Shown piece after piece: positions 1-9,867 of a stretch of DNA of 64,000 nucleotides. The notes beneath the pieces were generated by a model that was not told where the DNA came from, ran no database searches, and saw only the letters and a program-made list of their open reading frames with translations. The translations under genes and the position numbers were made by a program. Position 1 is the first letter of the stretch. Every line of letters begins with the position of its first letter. The stretch is from Clostridia bacterium. Lineage in GTDB: Bacteria; Bacillota; Clostridia; Oscillospirales; CAG-272. Location of the stretch: the NCBI GenBank assembly GCA_017504785.1, contig JAFVQL010000078.1:1388-65387 (forward strand), read 5' to 3'.

Positions 1-169
1 AATGACCTGTAATACTTGCTACATCAGCGACATCCCTTCGGGGGTAGGGGGATCAAAATCTCTACGACTTTCGCTTGTGAGACGGGCGAGGAGTCACACG
101 CGAAAAATCGGGAAATCAAGAGGGGGTATACCCCCACATTCAAGTTTTCAAGATATGAAAGGAGTTTTT

Positions 170-373
170 ATGACTATACACAGAATGCGCACCATCAACG
201 AATCGGTCGCGATTATTAAGGAAATGGACGAACAGTCCGCCATCACCGCAAACTGCATCCGTACTCTCTGCAAGGAAGGCAAGGTACACTGCGTTTTCAC
301 CGGCAAAAAGATCCTTGTGGATCTCGATGCACTAATTGCATTTTTATCAGGAAATTATCAAAAAACAGCTTGA
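170..373 (+). CDS. Excisionase-family (Xis-like) small HTH DNA-binding protein
   Basis: An in-frame ATG at 170 is preceded by AAAGGAG. The 67-aa product (MTIHRMRTINESVAIIKEMDEQSAITANCIRTLCKEGKVHCVFTGKKILVDLDALIAFL...) has the short excisionase-type HTH layout and sits directly upstream of the integrase. Codons 2-169 of the tracked ORF look non-coding. Confidence 0.55.
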   Translation: MTIHRMRTINESVAIIKEMDEQSAITANCIRTLCKEGKVHCVFTGKKILVDLDALIAFLSGNYQKTA

Positions 374-448
374 CTTTTGCAAACCTTTGTGGCTTCCTTT
401 GTTGTTGCCAAGGGCTTGCTATAACGACGACGAAACGGAGGATTTGAT

Positions 449-1843
449 ATGGCAACGATAACGAAACGAATGACGAAATCCGGTCCCACCTACCGCATAC
501 AGGTGAAACTCAAGGACAAAGGCAGCGGAAAGATGAATGTCTATTCCACCACATGGAAGCCGCAAATGGGAATGACGCCGAAGCAGATGGAGCGTGAGGT
601 GATCGTGTACGCGGATCAGTACGAAAACAATCTGCGCATGTCCCTCACGGCTGCAGGCGGCGATGGTGTATCACCGGACACCACGCTTGCCGATTATATG
701 AAATGGTGGCTGGAGCGCCGCAAAGAAGAATTGTCGGTCAGCTACTATGTCAACTGCCAATCCGCAATCACAGAAATAGCCGCCAGCATTGGCGGCTACA
801 AGCTGCGCGAGCTCAACCCGACGATCATACAGCGATTCTACGATGATCTCGACAGGCGCGAAAGAATTATCATTACGGTATGCGCCAAGCCGGAATTCCA
901 AGAAGCAGTTGACGCAGCGAGACGCGGAGAGCGCAAACTGAAACAGAAGTTGGATTATGACAGCGGGCCTCTGCTGGCAGCTCTGCGTGGCGATAACATC
1001 CGACTCGAACAGGCGGAAAAGATCGCAGAAAACTTCGGCTGCCGCACCACAGCACTGTTCAATGTGAAAAAGAAAAAGCAGCCATACGCCTACGAGACCA
1101 TGCACAAAATCAAGCGCACGTTGCGCGCGATTCTCTCGCATGCAAAGAAGCAGCGCCTCATCGTCGACAACTACGCTACCGCAGATTACATCGACTTCCC
1201 GAAGCGGCCGTCGAAGGAAATCGACTATATGAACGACGAAGACGCCAAGCTCTTCTACGCGACAGCGTTGGCGTATCCGGATGTGCGATGCAAAACGGCG
1301 GCGCTCATACTCCTGCTCACAGGCATCCGCCGCGGTGAGCTCTGCGGGCTGGAATGGTCGAATGTTGACCTCGATGAAGGAACGATCACCATAGAACGAT
1401 CAGTCACAACGGTAAAAGGCGTCGGCCTCGTGGAAAAGGATCCCAAGACCGAGAGCAGCAAGCGCGCCATCAGTATATCGGATAAGCTGGTGGCAATACT
1501 CATGGAGTACAAGGAATGGTACGATCAGTACAAATACGACGTCGGTGACCGATGGCACGAGACGAACAGGCTATTTATCTCGGAGGACGGAAAGGTCATG
1601 TATCCCGGCACGATATCATACTGGGTGCATAAGATCTGCGATCAAGCGGGGCTACCGCACAGAACAGTGCACTCGCTACGCCACACCAATATCACGATGC
1701 AGATCGCAGCAGGCGTCCCGCTGGTGACAGTCGCAGGCCGAGCAGGCCACGCGCGCACCAGCACCACAACCGACATATACAGCCACTTCTTAAAGAGCTC
1801 GGACAGAACGGCAGCAGAAAAGATCGAAGAACTGTTCGATTAA
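449..1843 (+). CDS. int: Tyrosine-type site-specific recombinase / phage-ICE integrase
   Basis: 464-aa ORF with a GGAG RBS. It has a basic N-terminal arm-binding-like domain. The C-terminal catalytic signature is present: ...GIRRGELCGLEW... and HSLRHTNITMQIAAGVPLVTVAGRAGHARTSTTTDIYSH (R, HxxR, Y arrangement). Confidence 0.9.
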   Translation: MATITKRMTKSGPTYRIQVKLKDKGSGKMNVYSTTWKPQMGMTPKQMEREVIVYADQYENNLRMSLTAAGGDGVSPDTTLADYMKWWLERRKEELSVSYYVNCQSAITEIAASIGGYKLRELNPTIIQRFYDDLDRRERIIITVCAKPEFQEAVDAARRGERKLKQKLDYDSGPLLAALRGDNIRLEQAEKIAENFGCRTTALFNVKKKKQPYAYETMHKIKRTLRAILSHAKKQRLIVDNYATADYIDFPKRPSKEIDYMNDEDAKLFYATALAYPDVRCKTAALILLLTGIRRGELCGLEWSNVDLDEGTITIERSVTTVKGVGLVEKDPKTESSKRAISISDKLVAILMEYKEWYDQYKYDVGDRWHETNRLFISEDGKVMYPGTISYWVHKICDQAGLPHRTVHSLRHTNITMQIAAGVPLVTVAGRAGHARTSTTTDIYSHFLKSSDRTAAEKIEELFD

Positions 1844-1853
1844 CATACAAAAA

Positions 1854-1882
1854 CGGGCGAGGATCATTGCGATCTTCGCCCG
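1854..1882 (+). terminator. Weak hairpin downstream of int
   Basis: GGGCGAGGATC-ATTGC-GATCTTCGCCC, an 11-bp stem with one mismatch. There is no clear T-run, so terminator function is uncertain. Confidence 0.3.
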
Positions 1883-1921
1883 TTAAACTTTAGCATTTTG
1901 TTATTCATTTGTCGGATTGTG

Positions 1922-1950
1922 TTGAAAAAGTCATAAATTTATTGTATAAT
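1922..1950 (+). promoter_or_regulatory. Sigma-A-type promoter for the orphan 461-aa gene
   Basis: TTGAAA (1922-1927), a 17-nt spacer, then TATAAT (1945-1950), about 30 nt upstream of the ATG at 1982. Confidence 0.5.
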
Positions 1951-1981
1951 ATTATAAAGAACAGCGCGAGGAGAATTTGGT

Positions 1982-3367
1982 ATGACGCTTGAAGAAAAAA
2001 TACTTAAAATAAATGTGCCCTCTGTTTCAGAGTTACCTAATGTTGGATCGCTTCCTGCAGGGACTGCCGCTACTATTGAGGATTTCTTTGAAACGTTTGT
2101 TAGAGATAGATTGCCGGAACGTGATGTGATTAAGCACTGGCATAAACTTTTGATGGACTATACGAGTGATCTAACAAAATTGAGTTGTTGCGTCAGATTC
2201 GGAAACAATGGTACCGATAAAGCATCGAGCAGCGGCGAAAAAGGTTATTATAAGCTGAGGAGAGGCTGGTTAACCCAAAATGACCGTGATGACTTCGAAT
2301 ACTTTTTTGCCGACAACTTCTTTTCCTCGTTCATTTATAAGTTGGCTTTAGATGGGGTAAAACCATCAGTTGCAGAGGTGGGCAGTCTTTTTAGGCAGCA
2401 CAAATTTCCGTACGGTTTTGGCTTTTTGATAGACAAAAAAGTTAATGAGTACAAAGGCGTAGTTGTTGCCGTTGCCAAGGAGCCCGGCTTTCTTGGAAAT
2501 TATAAATTGTCCCATGTATTTGACTCTGGCGAATTTTTTGACATTGGCGGTAGAATGTACGGTGACGCCAGCTTAACAGAAAAACATTTTCCGATCGGTC
2601 ACAGCAATGATTTTTTGAAAAACAGTGACCGTATACGTAGAATGCATATTTCGGATGAATCAAAAGCAGTTATTGTCGCTAAATTTTTAAGATTTGCACA
2701 TCCGTTTAATTATTTTTTAACACCGGCTAAAACAAGGCATGTTTGCGGTCAGCCAGTTTATAAAAAAGATATTGGCGAAGATCCCCGTATGATTAGCTAC
2801 GTAAGGCAATATTTAGAGAAAGAATACCCGGACGAGTATAGTGAATTCGTGAGCAAAATAATGTGGTATGAAGATCCACACGCTGTCGCAGCAACTGGAA
2901 AAGAGCGCATAGATATTACATACGGTATGGATGCCGCTAAGACATCTTCCGTTACGCCTGCACCGGCAGCTAAAAAAACTGTGACGGTTGCTCCCAAGAC
3001 CAGTACCACTACATTACCCAAAGTGCCAATTGACCTAACAAAACTTACGAGAGCTTATTTAGAAACATTTAAGGTCGGAGAAATTGCCAATCAAGTTTTA
3101 CGAGCTATATTAGCGAGTGGAAAAGTACCCAAAAACACGGTGGATGCTTGGAAAACGGTGAGTGGAAGCAAAGCAACGTTTGGATTAAGTGATCCAATTT
3201 TAGGTTATTCCAGAAAAGACTCAAAAGGCTATAACAGATACTATGACAACACGCTCAATTTGTACGGTGAAGATTTGTATCTTTGCAGCCAATGGAAGAT
3301 CAATCACAAAGCGCGCCTAATTACATGGATCCTCAATTGGATCGCTGCCAACGGCGGTAAAATTTAA
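1982..3367 (+). CDS. Hypothetical two-domain protein (island cargo, no family recognised)
   Basis: 461-aa ORF with AT-rich codon usage unlike its neighbours and its own promoter and terminator. It has an N-terminal domain of about 300 aa, an Ala/Pro/Thr-rich linker (about aa 315-345) and a C-terminal domain of about 115 aa ending ...NRYYDNTLNLYGEDLYLCSQWKINHKARLITWILNW. No signal peptide or TM segment is visible. Confidence 0.8.
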   Translation: MTLEEKILKINVPSVSELPNVGSLPAGTAATIEDFFETFVRDRLPERDVIKHWHKLLMDYTSDLTKLSCCVRFGNNGTDKASSSGEKGYYKLRRGWLTQNDRDDFEYFFADNFFSSFIYKLALDGVKPSVAEVGSLFRQHKFPYGFGFLIDKKVNEYKGVVVAVAKEPGFLGNYKLSHVFDSGEFFDIGGRMYGDASLTEKHFPIGHSNDFLKNSDRIRRMHISDESKAVIVAKFLRFAHPFNYFLTPAKTRHVCGQPVYKKDIGEDPRMISYVRQYLEKEYPDEYSEFVSKIMWYEDPHAVAATGKERIDITYGMDAAKTSSVTPAPAAKKTVTVAPKTSTTTLPKVPIDLTKLTRAYLETFKVGEIANQVLRAILASGKVPKNTVDAWKTVSGSKATFGLSDPILGYSRKDSKGYNRYYDNTLNLYGEDLYLCSQWKINHKARLITWILNWIAANGGKI

Positions 3368-3380
3368 TTACACGTAAAAA

Positions 3381-3407
3381 GCCGGCAGCGTGTGCTGTCG
3401 GCTTTTT
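3381..3407. terminator. Bidirectional intrinsic terminator between the cargo gene and tRNA-Arg
   Basis: GCCGGCAGC-GTGT-GCTGTCGGC has a 9-bp stem with one mismatch. It is flanked by AAAAA (5') and TTTTT (3'), so it can terminate both the + strand gene and the - strand tRNA transcript. Confidence 0.7.
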
Positions 3408-3481
3408 GGCACCCCCGGCGGGAATCGAACCCACGACTAATCCTTAGGAGGGACTTGTAATATCCACTTTACTACGGAGGC
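3407..3481 (-). tRNA. tRNA-Arg (anticodon CCT)
   Basis: The reverse complement reads GCCTCCG TA GTAA AGTGGATA TTAC A AGTCC CTCCTAA GGATT AGTC GTGGG TTCGATT CCCGC CGGGGGT G CCA. It has a 7-bp acceptor stem (two G-U pairs), a 4-bp D stem with GG in the loop, a 5-bp anticodon stem, anticodon CCT, a canonical T-loop and an encoded CCA. Confidence 0.85.
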
Positions 3482-3660
3482 AAATTATGAAATTTATAGA
3501 AGATGCTTGAAGCACGCCTATCCCTTAAAAATCACCAAAAAGGTGCCGCAGGGCACCAAATAGGGTGCCAAATTTCCTGTGGTGTCAAGGCAAGGTCGCG
3601 TTTTCGCCGTTTTCCTCGCTTTTTCTCGCGTTTGCTCGGTTGATATGAGGCGAGAGCTAA

Positions 3661-4215
3661 CCCTTAGGAGGGGTTTATTATATTCCGCAACCGTCGCATA
3701 TTCGTTGATTGTCGGGCTAAAGCCCTTCGCCAACTCATTGCTTTGGGTTGTCTCGCGTTGCGAAAACAACACTTAGTTGTTTTCACTTGCTCGCATTTAA
3801 TATGCAGGCAAGTATTCAATTAAAAAGTTAGTTCCCTTAGGAGGGGTTTATTATATTCCGCAACCGTCGCATATTCGTTGATTGTCGGGCTAAAGCCCTT
3901 CGCCAACTCATTGCTTGGGGTTGTCTCGCGTTGCGAAAACAACACTCAGTTGTTTTCACTTGCTCGCATTTAATATGCAGGCAAGTATTCAATTAAAAAG
4001 TTAGTTCCCTTAGGAGGGGTTTATTATATTCCGCAACCGTCGCATATTCGTTGATTGTCGGGCTAAAGCCCTTCGCCAACGCATTGCTTGGGGTTGTCTC
4101 GCGTTGCGAAAACAACACTCAGTTGTTTTCGCTTGCTCGCATTTAATATGCAGGCAAATATGAAATTATAAAAACAACACGCAGTTGTTTTCGCTTATTC
4201 GCATTTAACAATTTA
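3661..4215. repeat. 173-bp tandem repeat, about 3.2 copies, non-coding
   Basis: The units are 3661-3833, 3834-4006 (only 2 mismatches between these two) and 4007 to about 4165 (a few substitutions, with a diverging tail). A partial extra copy of the hairpin segment lies at about 4171-4215. Each unit carries a hairpin GCGAAAACAAC-ACTCA-GTTGTTTTC(A/G)C and a small GGGC-TAAA-GCCC hairpin. All frames are closed and there are no unique spacers. Confidence 0.9.
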
Positions 4216-4347
4216 ACTTCGCAGGGATCTCGCGTGTAGTTTTAAAAAAAGCGCATACAATAAAATTACCAAACAATATTTTATCACAAAAAAAGCAAAA
4301 AGTCAATCGGAATATAGAGAAAAAGAAAAACTGCATGCAGATTTTTC

Positions 4348-4376
4348 TTGACGGTGTGCGCGGGTTGTGGTAGAAT
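4348..4376 (+). promoter_or_regulatory. Sigma-A-type promoter (extended -10) for the pfkB-family gene
   Basis: TTGACG (4348-4353), a 17-nt spacer ending in TGG, then TAGAAT (4371-4376). Confidence 0.5.
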
Positions 4377-4412
4377 AAAGAAAAAAGCGTATCAGGAGAA
4401 GGAAAACCGCCA

Positions 4413-5339
4413 ATGAACGTTATAACGCTGACCTTGAATCCCGCATTTGATCTGCATTGCTATGCGGATGCCTTCGTGCCGTACCACGAGAACGTTTTTG
4501 ATATCACCGCCAAGGATGCGGGCGGCAAGGGGATCAACGTGTCGCGTGCGCTTGCGAAAAACGGCGTGAAAAATCTCGCGGTTTGCGTGCTTGGGCGCGA
4601 AAACGGCGGAGAATTTCTTAAAAGCCTTGAAAGCGAGGGGCTTGCGGTCAATGCGGTATACACCGAGGGGCGCATTCGCGAAAATATCACCCTGCATGAA
4701 AAAGAAAGGGCAGAAACGCGCATCAGCTTCAAGGGCTTTTCTATGTGCGAGAGCGCGCTTGCTAAGGTGCGTGAGGCGATGGGAACGAATCTTTCGGGAA
4801 GCGCCGTCGTGTTTGCGGGAAGTGCGCCCGCGGGCGTTTCGGAGAGTGCCTTGGTTGCCTTTCTTCAGGACTTAAAAAACGCGGGTGCTTCGCTCGTGAT
4901 CGATTCGCGCTCGCTTTCCATCGCGGCGATCGCGGCGCTTCGCCCGATGCTGATCAAGCCGAACAAGCACGAGGCGGAAGGTGCGCTCGGTATAAAGATC
5001 GTAAATATAGAGGACGGTGCGCGCGCGGCGAAGGCACTGCGCGAAAAGGGGATCGAAAACGTGCTTTTGAGCCTCGGCGCAGAGGGCGCGATCCTTTCTT
5101 GCCCATCGGGCACGTATTACGCATCCGCACCCGAAATAGAAGTGCTTTCCACGGTCGGTGCAGGGGATAGCACCCTCGCGGGCTTCCTTTTTGCAAAGGC
5201 CGCCGGCTGTAAGGACGAAGAGATCCTTGCCCGTGCCGTGGCGTTCGGAAGTGCCGCTTGTATGCTTGCGGGCACAGCCGCGCCGCTAACCGAGGATATA
5301 GAAAAGCTCCGAAAGAAAATTTCGGTGAAAACGGTATGA
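4413..5339 (+). CDS. PfkB-family hexose-phosphate kinase (1-phosphofructokinase / tagatose-6-phosphate kinase-like)
   Basis: 308 aa. The N-terminus MNVITLTLNPAFDLH is typical of the FruK/LacC group. It also has GGKGINVSRAL and the C-terminal GAGDSTLAGFL ATP-binding motif. The RBS is AGGAGAAGGA. Confidence 0.85.
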   Translation: MNVITLTLNPAFDLHCYADAFVPYHENVFDITAKDAGGKGINVSRALAKNGVKNLAVCVLGRENGGEFLKSLESEGLAVNAVYTEGRIRENITLHEKERAETRISFKGFSMCESALAKVREAMGTNLSGSAVVFAGSAPAGVSESALVAFLQDLKNAGASLVIDSRSLSIAAIAALRPMLIKPNKHEAEGALGIKIVNIEDGARAAKALREKGIENVLLSLGAEGAILSCPSGTYYASAPEIEVLSTVGAGDSTLAGFLFAKAAGCKDEEILARAVAFGSAACMLAGTAAPLTEDIEKLRKKISVKTV

Positions 5340-5516
5340 TCTCGGAAAAATATCCAAGAAAATGTCGGGAAAAATATGAAAGTATTTGTTTTATACCATA
5401 ACGGAACGAATTTTTAGCCATCTCCTTTGCCCGTTTTTCTCCGTGCTTGTAAAAAATGCTGCTGCTTTTTCCTTTTTGCAAGCGCGTGAAAAATAATCCA
5501 AGGGAGAGCGCCACGC

Positions 5517-5579
5517 GGCGTCGGCTACCTCGCGGATCGGCATATTGCCGAACGGCAAGAGGTCGCCGACGTCTTTTTT
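5517..5579 (+). terminator. Putative intrinsic terminator downstream of the pfkB-family gene
   Basis: GGCGTCGGC (5517-5525) pairs with GCCGACGTC (5565-5573) around a structured loop and is followed by TTTTTT. Confidence 0.5.
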
Positions 5580-5612
5580 ATAAATAAAAATATAAAAAAT
5601 TGAAAATTCCTA

Positions 5613-5641
5613 TTGACTTTTGCGCTTTAGCGTGATAAACT
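5613..5641 (+). promoter_or_regulatory. Sigma-A-type promoter of the yerC-his operon
   Basis: TTGACT (5613-5618), a 17-nt spacer, then TAAACT (5636-5641), about 28 nt upstream of the yerC-like ATG. Confidence 0.45.
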
Positions 5642-5669
5642 ATTAAAGAACAAAAGCGAGGAGGTCATC

Positions 5670-5963
5670 ATGAAGGAGTTTTATTTGGAAAAATATGATG
5701 GATTTTTCGAGGCAATCTGCAAGCTTACAAGCCTGGAGGATTGCCGTAAATTCTTTGAGGACGTTTGCACCATCAAGGAAATAGAGGATATGAGCGGCCG
5801 CTTGGACGTTGCCCGTCTTCTCTGCGAGGGGAAGAGCTATCAGGAGGTTTCGAGGCTGACGGGGGCAAGCACCGCAACCATCAGCCGTGTCAATAAATGC
5901 CTGAACTACGGCGCGGGCGGCTATGCGCTCGTGCTGGATACGGAGGAGAAGGCGAATGGATAA
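5670..5963 (+). CDS. yerC: TrpR-related YerC/YecD-family DNA-binding protein (probable histidine-operon regulator)
   Basis: 97 aa. The sequence ...CKLTSLEDCRKFFEDVCTIKEIEDMSGRLDVARLLCEGKSYQEVSRLTGASTATISRVNKCLNYG matches the YerC/TrpR-like fold signature. The stop overlaps the hisZ start. Confidence 0.8.
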   Translation: MKEFYLEKYDGFFEAICKLTSLEDCRKFFEDVCTIKEIEDMSGRLDVARLLCEGKSYQEVSRLTGASTATISRVNKCLNYGAGGYALVLDTEEKANG

Positions 5964-6900
5964 TATTTTGTCGATCATGTCCTCCGAGGAGCGCGCGGCG
6001 TTTTCGCTTTGCGCGCTGTACGAGAGCGCGGGCTATCAAAAATACCGTATGAGCAAGTTTGAGGAATACGCGCTCTACGTGCAAAACAAGGATTTCCTCG
6101 TTTCGGAAAACGTCATCACCTTCACGGATACGGACGGAAAGCTCCTTGCCCTGAAGCCGGACGTAACGCTTTCCATCATTAAAAATACCCGCACGCAAAG
6201 CGGCGTGATGAAGGTATATTATAAGGAAAACATTTACCGCGTTTCCGGTAGCACAAAGAGCTTTAAGGAACTGATGCAGGCAGGCCTTGAATGTCTTGGC
6301 GAGGTAACGACCGAGACCGTGATCGAGGTGCTCTCGCTTGCGAAAAAGAGCCTTGACTATATCTCTTCCGAGAACGTGCTGGAGATCTCGCATTTGGATA
6401 TCGTTTCGGGCGTGCTTTCCGCTTGCTCTGTCAGCGAGCAGGGGCGCAGAGAGATCCTCATGTATCTCGGAGAAAAGAATGAGAGCGGTATGCGCGCGGT
6501 GGCTTTGCGCGAGGGCCTTTCGGCGGAAGCGGCGGCATGGATCTGCCGTTTGGTAACGCTGTACGACGCACCCGAGAAGGTTCTTCCCGCACTGGATGCG
6601 CTTGCCCTCACCCCCGCGCTTCGCGCCGCGATCGAGGAGCTTCGCGCCATCGTTGCAGGCCTTCGGGCACTCGGCATTTCGGATAAGCTCATCATCGACT
6701 TCTCGGTGGTGAACGATATGAATTATTATAACGGCATTGCGTTCAAGGGCTTTGTCAACGGCGTTCCCGCGGGCGTGCTCTCGGGCGGCGAATACGATAG
6801 CCTCTTGAAGAAAATGAAGAAGAACGAGAAGGGCATTGGCTTTGCCGTGTATATGGATGAGCTTTCGAGGCTTGCGGATGCGAAAGGAGCAGGAAAGTGA
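5956..6900 (+). CDS. hisZ: ATP phosphoribosyltransferase regulatory subunit HisZ
   Basis: The ATG at 5956 overlaps the yerC stop. It is a HisRS-like paralog (MDNILSIMSSEERAAFSLCALYESAGYQKYRMSKFEEY...) directly followed by a short-form hisG. Its stop overlaps the hisG GTG (GTGA). Confidence 0.85.
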   Translation: MDNILSIMSSEERAAFSLCALYESAGYQKYRMSKFEEYALYVQNKDFLVSENVITFTDTDGKLLALKPDVTLSIIKNTRTQSGVMKVYYKENIYRVSGSTKSFKELMQAGLECLGEVTTETVIEVLSLAKKSLDYISSENVLEISHLDIVSGVLSACSVSEQGRREILMYLGEKNESGMRAVALREGLSAEAAAWICRLVTLYDAPEKVLPALDALALTPALRAAIEELRAIVAGLRALGISDKLIIDFSVVNDMNYYNGIAFKGFVNGVPAGVLSGGEYDSLLKKMKKNEKGIGFAVYMDELSRLADAKGAGK

Positions 6901-7532
6901 AACCGATTTTGAATATTGCTCTGCCGAAGGGCAGACTCGGCGAAAAGGTATACGCCATGTTTGAAAAGGCGGGCTTTGGCTGCCCCTCGATCCTTGAGGA
7001 GAGCCGCAAGCTGATTTTTGAAAACGAAGAGGCGGGCGTCCGCTATTTCTGGGTGAAGCCCTCGGACGTTGCGATCTACGTAGAGCGCGGCGCGGCGGAT
7101 ATAGGCGTTGCGGGCAAGGATATTCTTCTCGAATATGCGCCCGACGTGTATGAGCTTTTGGATCTGAAGCTCGGAAAATGCAGTATGTGTGTCGCGGCGA
7201 AAAAGGGCTTTGCGGATGACCGCAATCGCCCCCTGACCGTTGCCACCAAATTTACGAATATTGCCAAGACGCATTATGCCGCCGAGGGCAGAGATATTGA
7301 TATCATCCACCTGAACGGCTCGATCGAGATCGCGCCGATCCTCGGACTTTCGGACGTGATCGTGGATATCGTGGAGACCGGAACCACCCTGAAGGAAAAC
7401 GATCTTGAGGTCGTGGAGCGCTTCGTGCCGATCAGCGCGCGTCTGATCGCCAATAAATCCGGCTTTAAATTTAAAACAGAGAGAATCGAGCAGCTTCGCG
7501 AGAGCCTTGCGAAGCTTGTGGAGGAAATATGA
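6897..7532 (+). CDS. hisG: ATP phosphoribosyltransferase, short form
   Basis: 211 aa, MKPILNIALPKGRLGEKV... The short HisG type requires HisZ. The gene starts at a GTG and is translationally coupled on both sides. Confidence 0.9.
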   Translation: MKPILNIALPKGRLGEKVYAMFEKAGFGCPSILEESRKLIFENEEAGVRYFWVKPSDVAIYVERGAADIGVAGKDILLEYAPDVYELLDLKLGKCSMCVAAKKGFADDRNRPLTVATKFTNIAKTHYAAEGRDIDIIHLNGSIEIAPILGLSDVIVDIVETGTTLKENDLEVVERFVPISARLIANKSGFKFKTERIEQLRESLAKLVEEI

Positions 7533-8806
7533 TCAGGATCATTAAGGACAGTCTCAGCAAAAGAGAAGAGATCTTCGGCGCGAAGGAAGAAAGAGTGGAC
7601 GTCAGCGCCACGGTTTCCGAGATCATTGCCAAGGTAAGAGCCGAGGGCGATGCGGCGCTTCGTTACTATACGGAAAAATTCGATAAGGCGAAGCTCACCT
7701 CTCTGCGCGTCAGCGAGGAGGAGATCGAGGAGGCGATGGCGGCGATCGAGCCGGAGTTTATCCGCATTCTTGAAAGCGCGGCAGAGAATATTCGTATTTT
7801 CCACGCCCGCCAGAAGCGCGAGGGCTTTGAGCTGAAGCGCGAAAACGGTGTCATCGTCGGCCAGAGAGTCACCCCCGTGGAGGTCGCGGGCATCTACGTG
7901 CCGGGCGGCACGGCGGCGTACCCCTCCACCGTTCTGATGGATTCCATTCCCGCCGTGGTTGCGGGATGCCCCCGCGTCGTGATGGTGACGCCCCCCTCGA
8001 AGGACGGTAAGGTAAACCCCGCCATTTTGGCGGCGGCGAAGGTTGCAGGCGTGAAGGAGATCTACAAAGTCGGCGGCGCGCAGGCGGTTGCCGCTCTTGC
8101 ATACGGAACCGAGACCGTACCCAAGACCGATAAGATCGTCGGTCCCGGAAATGCCTTCGTGGCAGAAGCGAAAAGGCAGGTGTTCGGTGCCGTATCGATC
8201 GATATGATCGCAGGCCCGAGCGAGATCCTCGTAGTGGCAGACGGTAAGAATGTACCGAAGGATATTGCGGCGGATCTTCTTTCCCAGGCAGAGCACGATA
8301 AAATGGCAAGCGCGGTTTTGGTGACCGATGACGAAGCGTTTGCCGAGGCCGTTTCGGCAGAGCTGGAAAGGCAGATCCCGCTTCTCGAAAGAGCCGAGAT
8401 CGCCCGCGCATCGATCGATTCTAACGGGAAGATCATCATCACGGCGGATATCGATGCCGCCATCGAGATCGCAAACGGCATTGCCCCAGAGCATCTGGAG
8501 CTTTGTCTTGACGAGCCGTTCCGGTATCTTGCAAAGGTGAAGCACGCAGGCTCCGTTTTCCTCGGCAGAAACTGCCCCGAGGCGATCGGCGATTATTTTG
8601 CCGGCACGAACCACACTTTACCGACGAGCGGTACGGCAAGATTTTCCTCGCCCCTCTCGGTGGAGGATTTTATAAAAACGACGCAGTACATTTATTACGA
8701 TAAGGACGCACTCGGCAAGGTCGCCGAGGACGTGGCCTATTTTGCAAAGAAGGAAGGGCTCACGGCGCATGCAAAAAGTGCCGTTTGCCGTTTTGAAGAA
8801 AAATGA
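7529..8806 (+). CDS. hisD: Histidinol dehydrogenase
   Basis: 425 aa with ...GIYVPGGTAAYPSTVLM..., ...SQAEHD... and ...GDYFAGTNHTLPT... motifs. It has 4-nt overlaps with hisG and hisC. Confidence 0.92.
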   Translation: MIRIIKDSLSKREEIFGAKEERVDVSATVSEIIAKVRAEGDAALRYYTEKFDKAKLTSLRVSEEEIEEAMAAIEPEFIRILESAAENIRIFHARQKREGFELKRENGVIVGQRVTPVEVAGIYVPGGTAAYPSTVLMDSIPAVVAGCPRVVMVTPPSKDGKVNPAILAAAKVAGVKEIYKVGGAQAVAALAYGTETVPKTDKIVGPGNAFVAEAKRQVFGAVSIDMIAGPSEILVVADGKNVPKDIAADLLSQAEHDKMASAVLVTDDEAFAEAVSAELERQIPLLERAEIARASIDSNGKIIITADIDAAIEIANGIAPEHLELCLDEPFRYLAKVKHAGSVFLGRNCPEAIGDYFAGTNHTLPTSGTARFSSPLSVEDFIKTTQYIYYDKDALGKVAEDVAYFAKKEGLTAHAKSAVCRFEEK

Positions 8807-9867
8807 GTAAGTTTCTTGTAAATAAATATCAATCGCTTGAGCCGTACACCCCCGGAGAGCAGCCGAGAGAGCGCAAGTATTTGAAGCTCAATACCAACGA
8901 ATCTCCCTTTCCTCCGTCCGAAAAAGCGATCGCGCTTGCCGCCAAGGAAGCCGAGCGGCTTATGCTGTATTCCGACCCGGAATGTAAAGAATTGTCTGCA
9001 AAAATGGCGGAAACGCTGGGTGTATCCGCGGAAAACGTCATCATGACCAATGGCTCGGATGAGGTGCTGAACTTCGCCTTTATGGCGTACTGTGATGAAA
9101 GCACCCCCGCGATCTTTCCCGACATTACCTACGGCTTTTATAAGGTTTTCGCAGCGCTGAACGCCGTGCCTTATAAGGAAATACCGCTCCTTGCGGATTT
9201 CTCCATGCCGCTGGCCGACCTGCTTTCTGCACGGGGAACGCTCTTTATTGCCAACCCCAACGCGCCGAGCGGCATCCTTCTTCCACTTTCCGAGATCGAA
9301 AAAATCGTTGCCGCCGATCCCGCCCGCATCGTCGTGGTGGACGAGGCGTATATCGACTTTGGCGGCGAAAGTGCCGTTTCGCTGATCGCGGAATACGATA
9401 ACCTTTTGGTGACGGGCACCTTCTCGAAATCCCGTTCCATGGCGGGCGCAAGACTCGGCTTCGGCGTGGCATCCGCCGCTCTGATCGCAGACCTGCACCG
9501 CATTCGTTATTCCACAAACCCCTATAACGTCAACCGCATGACGGCGGCGGCGGGCATCGGCGCACTTTCCGATAAGGAATATTTTGAAGAAAACTGCAAG
9601 AAGATCATCGAGGCGCGCGCCTATCTTGCAAGAGAGCTTTCCGCTCTCGGCTTTTCGATGACCGATTCTAAAGCAAACTTCCTTTTTGTGCGTCACGAGC
9701 GGATGAGCGGAGAGGCCGTTTACGGTGCGCTTCGCGAAAGGGGCGTGCTCGTGCGCCATTTCGGTGCGCCGCGCATCAAGGATTATAACCGCATCACGGT
9801 CGGCTCGATGGCAGAAATGGAGCAGCTCGTAGAGGTGATGAAAGAAATATTGGAGGAAACAAAATGA
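8803..9867 (+). CDS. hisC: Histidinol-phosphate aminotransferase
   Basis: 354-aa class-II aminotransferase with a PLP-lysine region ...[15 protein letters not shown]..., in operon context. Confidence 0.9.

Follow-up and report, generated by a model that had tools for sequence, protein, structure and literature searches.

Tandem copies of a split tRNA-Arg gene fragment in a Clostridia bacterium carry a structured insert that belongs to an uncatalogued family associated with tRNA genes

Background

Several kinds of small elements are known to occupy bacterial tRNA loci or to form short non-coding repeats. Partial tRNA genes can result from serial integrations, as in the tycheposon islands (10.1101/2020.12.28.424599), and there are islands that bear only an origin of transfer, oriT (10.64898/2026.01.13.699239). 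Group I introns of at least ~200 nt can reside in the anticodon loop of a complete tRNA-Arg(CCU) gene. CRISPR arrays are built of repeats of 21-48 nt with unique spacers, and ToxI repeats of 34-45 nt lie upstream of a ToxN/AbiQ-type toxin gene. MITEs, or miniature inverted-repeat transposable elements, have terminal inverted repeats and duplicate 2-10 bp of their target, and the attC sites of integrons carry the boxes RYYYAAC...GTTRRRY and are served by IntI. The present report concerns a tandem array between a tRNA-Arg gene and pfkB in a stretch of 64,000 nt from a Clostridia bacterium (assembly GCA_017504785.1, contig JAFVQL010000078.1), the whole of which is called the window here. The 173-bp repeat of this array is a set of three copies of a cut-down tRNA-Arg gene in which the D-loop carries a 108-nt insert, designated I. 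This insert is a member of an uncatalogued family that exists in uncultured gut Clostridia inside the loops of truncated or degenerate tRNA copies.

The array and its repeating unit

Tandem Repeats Finder detects a single array in the window, at 3661-4173, whose period is 173; its 3.0 copies match at 97% and have no indels. Units 1 and 2 are mismatched at positions 84 and 114 only, while unit 3 is identical to unit 2 at 148 of its first 151 nt and divergent over the last ~22 nt; the BLAST E-values between units, 1e-79 to 1e-97, imply that the array is not due to chance. The main hairpin has 9 bp in units 1 and 2 (GAAAACAAC/GTTGTTTTC) and 11 bp in unit 3 (GCGAAAACAAC/GTTGTTTTCGC), and a mini-hairpin, GGGC-TAAA-GCCC, occurs once in each unit (3714-3725, 3887-3898 and 4060-4071). 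A partial copy of the hairpin region, 38 nt long (4171-4208), forms part of a longer truncated fourth unit. The array is flanked by tRNA-Arg(CCT) on the minus strand (3407-3481) and, on the other side, by pfkB (4413-5339). Its longest open reading frame (ORF) has 84 codons for amino acids and no ORF extends beyond one unit; a protein-coding repeat is ruled out by this and by the period, which is not a multiple of 3.

An initial annotation of the window, prepared from the DNA letters and a list of ORFs, described much of this geometry correctly. The near-identical 173-bp repeat of ~3.2 units is real, and the two differences between units 1 and 2, the 9-11-bp hairpin and the GGGC/GCCC mini-hairpin in every unit, and the lack of an open frame or of unique spacers (hence neither a protein repeat nor a CRISPR array) were all borne out. 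The "handful" of changes ascribed to unit 3 amounts to three in the first 151 nt followed by the divergent end, and the fourth partial copy exists, but is not the hairpin alone, since the truncated unit reaches 4217. What escaped the initial annotation is that the repeat is a split, truncated tRNA-Arg(CCU), that the relevant strand is the minus strand and that the insert belongs to a dispersed family associated with tRNA genes.

The informative strand is that of the neighbouring tRNA-Arg(CCU). As the reference for parsing the unit we used L021, a related metagenome-assembled genome (MAG) with the same pfkB/tRNA-Arg synteny, in which the intact tRNA can be read as a|b|c, where a is GCCTGCATAGTTAAATG, b is GATATAATAAACCCCTCCTAAGGG and c is the remainder of the tRNA. 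On the minus strand each unit then consists of a 24-nt upstream spacer (s), tRNA nucleotides 1-16 (a), the 108-nt insert I and tRNA nucleotides 18-41 (b), the last of which include the CCU anticodon arm. The spacer s (AACTAACTTTTTAATTGAATACTT) lies directly upstream of the intact tRNA in L021 and is the same in the unit. Segments a and b together are colinear with nucleotides 1-41 of the tRNA-Arg(CCU) of the relatives and identical to them at 40 of 42 positions, which, with the identical 24-nt spacer in L021, marks the unit as a partial copy derived from a tRNA gene. Derivation from the window's own tRNA was considered and rejected, since the match there is 32 of 42. In unit 1 the b segment runs on as TTAG (3657-3660), as it does in the native tRNA. 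Neither ARAGORN nor the Rfam tRNA model calls the units as tRNA, the sole call in the region being the gene at 3407-3481; the units, which lack the T arm and the 3' acceptor strand, go uncalled for that reason.

The number of units varies among close relatives. In the closest of these, L078 (PfkB 91% identical), there is one unit, 100% identical to unit 3 of the window and preceded by the same truncated copy; the same-species metagenome assembly L001 has two, one like unit 1 and one like unit 3, between flanks that are ~99.8% identical to those of the window, which itself has three, and all of these units are 98-100% identical to each other. This series of one, two and three units suggests recent unequal crossing-over between 173-bp repeats and agrees with the very recent amplification that had been proposed for the array. 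A second same-species assembly, L002, starts within the array and holds at least two units.

It might be argued that the three copies are a mis-assembled one- or two-copy locus. Several short-read contigs end inside the array, the count of exactly three units comes from one assembly only, and L001, with nearly the same flanks, has two, a count that may in its turn reflect assembly collapse. We nonetheless find an artefact scarcely credible, since the units carry fixed differences (two sites between units 1 and 2, and an end peculiar to unit 3), the junction of units 2 and 3 is reproduced independently in L002 at 100% identity, and L021 and L083 have two-unit arrays of copies that have diverged. 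An error of this kind would in any case alter the copy number alone and not the nature of the unit, which, because it occurs in other assemblies, is not itself an artefact. The initial annotation had named an assembly artefact, or a lack of transcription together with a lack of conservation in any related genome, as grounds for giving up its proposal; the unit recurs in other assemblies and the module of promoter, a, I and b is found at all nine related loci described below.

The family of insert I

The hairpin in the 5' part of I, here called P1, served as the entry to the family. The 23-nt hairpin pattern, scanned exactly against 596 Gb of species-representative genomes, returned 53 loci, as compared with a chance expectation of ~0.3; the carriers are nearly all MAGs of Eubacteriales/Clostridia from ruminant guts, often with several contigs per MAG and with three at most. 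A gapped pattern that combines the hairpin with TATGCGAC was found in 16 metagenome contigs. A covariance model, R1, built from an alignment of 24 copies, recovered 33 full-length copies in the fetched loci (MAGs of ruminant-gut Clostridia and metagenomes) and, on the 64-kb window, the three units and nothing further. The 4227 models of Rfam gave no match to I in the window at E<=10 (a scan that the initial annotation had proposed), in 14 loci with diverse copies at E<=1 or in 18 loci at the gathering threshold. A BLAST search with a typical copy found no match in phage or plasmid collections, and scans of viral contigs with the hairpin and with a pattern for the 3' domain gave 0 hits each. 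As a separate observation, the MAG contig L011, which also holds I, has two matches to Gut-1 RNA (RF01706), at 294-364 and 1313-1390, both just at the gathering score.

Most copies of I sit in truncated or degenerate tRNA copies that adjoin an intact gene for the same tRNA. Copies in the D-loop, in the sense orientation, lie upstream of tRNA-Arg(CCU) and tRNA-Pro(CGG); copies in the variable loop are found in a degenerate tRNA-Met copy downstream of tRNA-Met; and copies in the T stem or acceptor, which are antisense, lie downstream of tRNA-Lys and others. A few are situated between ORFs or just within the start of an ORF. The host sequence just 5' of I often recurs 30-190 nt past I, as a repeat of 17-66 nt, and tandem arrays exist at seven loci: the window, L021, L083, L011 and L030, and, with related classes of elements, L010 and L044. 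We found neither terminal inverted repeats nor a fixed target motif for I.

The 23-nt P1 is common to three otherwise distinct classes of elements, including some in MAGs outside the Clostridia. Class 1 is the family of I itself. Class 2 is a 77-nt long hairpin, GTAGCGAAG...same 23-nt apex...CGCAGCGAGA, which is dispersed in the same MAGs (L016 1986-2053; also L009, L012, L013 and about 35 others) and appears to be homologous to the 5' third of I. In L016 the class-2 element is cleanly inserted between a copy of the tRNA-Thr 3' end and the terminator, relative to an empty paralogue. The third class, CTCTGCCGnAG-P1-CGAGAGG, was observed in MAGs that are not labelled Clostridia (L044 288-441; L049 2820-2842). 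Its units are tandem in L044, upstream of tRNA-Leu(CAG), and in L049 it is an 85-nt insert between 29-nt direct repeats of the tRNA-Phe 3' end.

Such features raise the question of whether I is a DNA element comparable to the repetitive extragenic palindromes (REPs) or to the palindrome-associated transposable elements (PATEs), moved as single-stranded DNA by an HUH (Y1) transposase of the IS200/IS605 type or of the REP-associated (RAYT) type. P1 and the second, longer hairpin of I (P2-P3, see below) would be the recognised hairpins, and only insertions into spare tRNA copies would survive. Many members of the family do start with GTAG and a hairpin (GTAGCAAG-P1 in class 1, the long hairpin in class 2), as does a foreign segment, X, at the Arg locus; the absence of terminal inverted repeats fits, as does the clean 77-nt insertion in L016, which lacks a short target duplication; strand-specific structure with covarying hairpins is what structure-specific recognition predicts; and the P1 shared by three classes would be easily understood. 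We consider this explanation quite unlikely all the same. No gene for a Y1 transposase, TnpB or RAYT was found in the contig neighbourhoods within 2.5 kb of the copies, a conserved target of 4-5 nt 5' of I is absent, the copies in the window read GCGAG and not GTAG, long direct repeats are unexpected for the HUH mechanism and the apparent copy number, at three contigs or fewer per MAG, is low. A search for a partner protein, by clustering of the ORFs situated up to 2.5 kb from 77 hairpin hits, showed only two recurrent kinds: spurious ORFs that span the repeats and genes for helix-turn-helix (HTH) proteins of the Cro/CI type. The latter are typical of islands.

The fold of insert I

I folds into P1, a hairpin of 9-12 bp, and a long composite hairpin, P2-P2a-P3-P3a, with the invariant internal loops AAAGCAAG...GAG / GAC...UAUGCGAC. 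The consensus of the 24 aligned copies reads, in order, G(U/G)AGCAAG, P1, CGCAGCGAAAC, P2, AAAGCAAG-GAG, P3/P3a, GAC-UAUGCGAC and P2'. In a 33-copy alignment fitted to the model, standard pairing is found in 93.7% of the cells, as compared with 38-48% when the partners are slid by 1-3 columns; both sides change in 20 of the 26 pairs, and the cells with double changes number 159, against 15-36 in the slid controls, with none of 500 shuffles reaching the observed values. An alignment made by MAFFT only recovers the same helices, with 14 of the 26 pairs compensated. P1 covaries too, through compensatory changes in distant members, and the orthologues at the Arg locus show compensatory changes in P2, P3 and P1, as for example CAACC/GGTTG versus CGCCC/GGGTG.

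On the tRNA-sense strand the paired cells include 23 G.U as against 13 A.C, which is a mild hint that this is the strand that folds. Three further ideas about the insert were set aside: a pairing between the 5' GCAAG and the CUUGC of the P3 loop is not conserved; the GGA motifs that a CsrA-type sponge would display are absent from the window copies; and P1 is unlikely to be a 434-type operator (ACAA-N7-TTGT), since both of its arms change compensatorily in distant members.

Conservation of the module at the Arg locus

Orthologous loci fetched through homologues of PfkB, together with L021, L052 and L067, gave a set of nine related loci that extends to ~66% PfkB identity. The module promoter-a-I-b is present upstream of tRNA-Arg(CCU) in all nine, with a variant of I that lacks P1 in L080/L081, and no empty site was found among these loci in the pfkB-homologue contexts that we inspected. 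In each of the six loci compared, conservation of the module exceeds that of the neighbouring pfkB coding DNA: the identity of a+I+b to the window is 100% in L078, 96% in L021, 95% in L052, 91% in L079 and 85% in both L082 and L083, where the corresponding identities of pfkB DNA are 92%, 82%, 72%, 75%, 71% and 71%. Taken with the compensatory changes, this is what one expects of a structured RNA gene under selection and not of a decaying scar.

Transcription signals and the reading that we favour

The sigma-70-type promoter that faces the array in the window (Table 1) has counterparts, TTGAC(T/A)-17-TA(A/G/C)AAT, upstream of the first unit in L021, L052, L067, L078, L079, L080, L082 and L083. 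Sense promoters (at least 10 of 12 consensus positions, no more than 200 nt upstream) were found at 11 of 31 loci and antisense promoters at none of the 31; among the former are the eight Arg-locus copies scanned, without exception, and three of the six copies upstream of tRNA-Pro. The terminator-like hairpin downstream of the array means that the array could be its own transcription unit, of ~730 nt. The region 4278-4376 also holds divergent, back-to-back promoters. The minus-strand one, TTGACT-17-TAAAAT, points to the array and the plus-strand one, TTGACG-17-TAGAAT, to pfkB; a palindrome between them (AAAAACTGCATGCAGATTTT, 4326-4345) may be a candidate for a shared operator.

We put at roughly even odds (a probability of about 0.5) the reading that the array represents a transcribed, selected and structured non-coding RNA module of mobile origin. 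From the sequence features described above we infer that the minus strand of the array is transcribed, that I acts as RNA, that it arrived as a small non-autonomous insertion and that the array grew by unequal recombination. According to this scenario, I would have inserted long ago, as a small non-autonomous element, into a spare copy of the tRNA 5' region, an entry that would have brought it under the tRNA promoter, and the module promoter-a-I-b would since have been maintained at the Arg locus by selection. The promoter TTGACT-17-TAAAAT would drive a stable structured RNA, either a leader or a small RNA of the tRNA-Arg locus; in the window the transcript might comprise the three full units and the truncated fourth copy, ~730 nt in all, and end at the hairpin 3557-3542. 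Recent unequal homologous crossing-over between units would account for the three near-identical copies. Among the candidates listed by the initial annotation, a tandemly amplified small RNA gene is the one that best fits the covarying structure, the promoter and terminator motifs and the conservation in excess of pfkB, even if its origin from a tRNA fragment had been missed.

Several observations weigh against such a reading. About 5 of 35 copies are antisense to the adjacent tRNA, some of them with no visible promoter, and many copies are flanked by the direct repeats of 17-66 nt of their target, a signature at the level of DNA. The excess of G.U pairs is weak and leaves room for folded single-stranded DNA, and the pair counts depend on the alignment that was fitted to the model. 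The subfamilies of I are, moreover, not specific to a locus: the copy at the Arg locus of L067 resembles Met- and Pro-locus copies and the copy at the Met locus of L074 resembles those of the Arg locus, which suggests that copies move or convert between loci and have not descended purely vertically.

Two more adventurous interpretations were considered. In one, the 14-25 nt of tRNA sequence 5' of I would be a guide and I its scaffold, and a protein would thereby be directed to tRNA genes for RNA-guided insertion or regulation. A variable 5' segment that is identical or antisense to the end of a tRNA gene does precede a conserved scaffold, with strong promoters just upstream, and the scaffold start GUAGCAAGUUAAAA may resemble the anti-repeat of the SpCas9 tracrRNA. 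The idea is nevertheless very improbable, given that no effector gene is situated within 2.5 kb, that the duplicated segment often takes in the promoter and spacer, more like a copy of a gene start than an acquired guide, that the antisense copies have no promoters and that neither HEARO nor other omega-RNA models in Rfam match. In the other, I would form the core, as RNA or as folded single-stranded DNA, of a bacterial mobile element of a new kind, with tRNA genes as its homing targets. Such an element might insert into a tRNA loop, duplicate 17-66 nt of its target, whereby the target is regenerated and tandem arrays are built, and take over the strong tRNA promoter to express itself; the adjoining tRNA fragment might guide it, or it might be copied by way of an RNA intermediate, as the short interspersed elements (SINEs) are. 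We regard this proposal as decidedly unlikely.

The neighbouring island and the foreign segments

The window's tRNA-Arg(CCU) is a divergent allele with 5' and 3' acceptor strands that are co-adapted to each other, and it probably arrived together with the island that borders its 3' end. In L078, the closest relative without the island, the tRNA starts with GCCTGC, as in the units and in the L021 tRNA, and the contig ends there. The island occupies 1-3367 of the window and is extended by 1-1380 of L001, its far end lying beyond the window; no DNA homologous to it was found in L021, L052 or L067. The neighbours of its 461-amino acid ORF (ORF461) and the ORFs upstream in the island, like ORF461 itself, match no family in Pfam, PHROGs or PADLOC. 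The coordinates of these and the other features are collected in Table 1.

Table 1. Positions of the array, its units and adjoining features in the window
Feature	Coordinates	Strand	Remarks
Tyrosine integrase (phrog_1, phage-type), island gene	449-1843	+	next to tRNA 3' end
ORF461, island gene	1982-3367	+	461 aa; no match in Pfam, PHROGs, PADLOC
tRNA-Arg(CCU), divergent allele	3407..3481	-	61-63/75 identical to relatives' tRNA
Foreign segment X_w	3482..3656	-	between array and tRNA; GCGAnAAAA x4, TTGGCACCC/TTGGTGCCC repeats
Terminator-like hairpin	3542..3557	-	GGTGCCCTGCGGCACC then TTTTTGGTGA; downstream of array
Unit 1	3661..3833	-	b 3661-3685, I 3686-3793, a 3794-3809, s 3810-3833
Unit 1, covariance model hit	3679-3797	-	121.9 bits
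Unit 2	3834..4006	-	b 3834-3858, I 3859-3966, a 3967-3982, s 3983-4006
Unit 2, covariance model hit	3852-3970	-	119.9 bits
Unit 3	4007..4172	-	b 4007-4031, I 4032-4139, a 4140-4155
Unit 3, covariance model hit	4025-4143	-	119.2 bits
Unit 3, tRNA-promoter-like spacer	4156-4172	-	TATAAT-TTCATATTT
Truncated fourth unit	4171..4217	-	3' part of a (GTTAAATTGTTAAATGCG) and 5' part of I through P1; also in L078
Sigma-70-type promoter	4278..4306	-	TTGACT-17-TAAAAT (with TG); faces array

Segments of foreign DNA occur directly after the copy of the anticodon arm at the end of a unit, CCTAAGG(G)|, in five of the nine related loci (the window/L001, L078, L079, L052 and L080/L081), and they differ between loci. 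The segment in the window, X_w, also holds the proximal promoter region of the tRNA. L078, L079 and L052 share the segment X, of ~190 nt, which starts with GTAG and a hairpin and contains GATAGAC three times and TTGTACACCC twice, while L080/L081 carry a third, distinct insert. These segments look like remnants of integrase arm sites, in which case the copy of the tRNA fragment may act as a decoy attachment site. In L052 a 44-nt copy of the 3' half of tRNA-Arg (4767-4810), 1.46 kb downstream of the intact tRNA, is a classical attachment (att) duplicate that stems from an integrated element, either small or decayed.

The main rivals to the RNA reading accept the anatomy of the unit and place its function at the level of DNA. 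One that bears directly on the island is that I is the terminal part of miniature integrative elements inserted into tRNA genes by the tyrosine integrases of neighbouring islands. The tRNA pieces would then be attL/attR duplicates, the array a record of serial integrations and the structure of I one that acts as DNA, for example as a folded single-stranded att site, an oriT or a single-strand origin. The partial tRNAs of serial integrations and the islands with only an oriT, cited above, count as precedents. In at least 12 loci direct repeats of 17-66 nt, of tRNA or target ends, flank I and a short tail; the copies are found at tRNA genes that are hot spots of integration by islands, with genes for the window integrase, HTH_3/HTH_26 and Fic proteins and a methylase; the 44-nt duplicate in L052 is of the classical type; and insertion at a with duplication regenerates the target and would explain the arrays at seven loci.

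Despite these points we judge an att scar unlikely. At only 85-300 bp the supposed elements fall short of the size that double-stranded circles need. Within 2.5 kb we saw no recurrent protein, integrases included, and the 5' end of I lacks the similarity to the corresponding side of the tRNA that core sites would need. The duplicate at the Arg locus is the 5' half, none of nine genomes has an element body there, and the selection on I at this locus is purifying and preserves its structure; the phage, plasmid and viral collections yielded no hits. The integrase in the window lies 1.5 kb away, across the tRNA, and eight other related loci have the module without this integrase island, which speaks against the satellite-like expansion tied to the island that the initial annotation had entertained. 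Its suggestion of an array of recombinase-binding sites is likewise unsupported as an account of what the repeat mainly is, given that stems that covary are not protein motifs, even though the anticodon-arm copy at the unit end is a point of insertion for foreign segments in the five loci named above.

Implications

If the RNA reading is true, uncultured gut Clostridia hold an undescribed family of structured RNAs or elements that is physically joined to fragments of tRNA genes and expressed from tRNA promoters. The clear covariation and the invariant junction nucleotides make the family suitable for tests of ribozyme, riboswitch or protein-binding activity. This may be a route by which small non-autonomous elements colonise tRNA genes, and tRNA loci may gather decoy copies; since foreign DNA apparently lands at the anticodon-arm copies, the array may shield the functional tRNA from integration. 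For those who annotate genomes, tandem repeats beside tRNA genes can be disguised tRNA fragments.

Comparison with known systems

The partial-tRNA att duplicates of islands such as the tycheposons (10.1101/2020.12.28.424599) share with the present locus a truncated tRNA beside an intact one, adjacent islands and repeated pieces. In contrast to them, the half duplicated here is the promoter-proximal 5' half and not the 3' half; a conserved structured insert interrupts every piece, the repeats enclose no element body and the module is conserved across species under selection that preserves its structure.

REPs, which number tens to hundreds per genome and flank a RAYT gene, their paired forms (REPINs) and the PATEs of IS200/IS605 are, like I, small, non-coding, hairpin-based, strand-specific and dispersed, with no terminal inverted repeats, and the order of GTAG followed by a hairpin (in REPs an imperfect palindrome) recurs in many members of the I family, although the window copies have GCGAG. 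The differences are that no RAYT or TnpA partner was found within 2.5 kb and the apparent copy number is low, that I is tied to tRNA loops and not to the 3' ends of genes, with long target duplications being common, and that I has a second, multi-helix domain of 75 nt with invariant internal loops. Unlike both the PATEs of IS200/IS605 and the omega-RNAs or reRNAs, I has varied left flanks (AAATG, GTTGG, TCGGG, TTACG and others) in place of a fixed 4-5-nt target, and there is no TnpA, TnpB or IscB within 2.5 kb of its copies.

Resemblance to the structured non-coding RNA motifs catalogued in Rfam that are often located near tRNAs, such as ROOL, GOLLD and raiA, extends to a fold supported by covariation, invariant junction nucleotides, occurrence in Firmicutes of the gut and rumen and proximity to tRNAs. 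I is much smaller, at 108-125 nt, lies within tRNA gene fragments, forms tandem arrays and has no match in Rfam.

ToxI repeats and CRISPR arrays are also tandem non-coding repeats that yield a multi-unit transcript. The units described here are of 173 nt, head-to-tail and free of unique spacers, unlike CRISPR repeats, and no cas gene is present among the genes annotated from 2 to 9867 (a 123-amino acid ORF that matches no family, the integrase, ORF461, pfkB and genes of the his operon). As distinct from ToxI, the period is 173, there is no toxin gene, and what lies downstream of the array is the tRNA on the minus strand and pfkB on the plus strand. Whereas MITEs end in inverted repeats and make short duplications, the ends of I form no inverted repeat and the flanking repeats have 17-66 nt. 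The attC sites of integrons differ in that P1 is conserved at its apex and not at its base, the boxes do not fit and the integrase is of the phage type (phrog_1). As for the group I introns of tRNA-Arg(CCU), I has 108 nt and sits in the D-loop, its host copy lacks the 3' half and Rfam gives no intron hit.

We found no description of such an element in the literature. The combination that we have not found described is that of a covarying multi-helix element inside tRNA 5' halves, with tRNA-type promoters, conservation at orthologous sites and a tendency to form tandem arrays.

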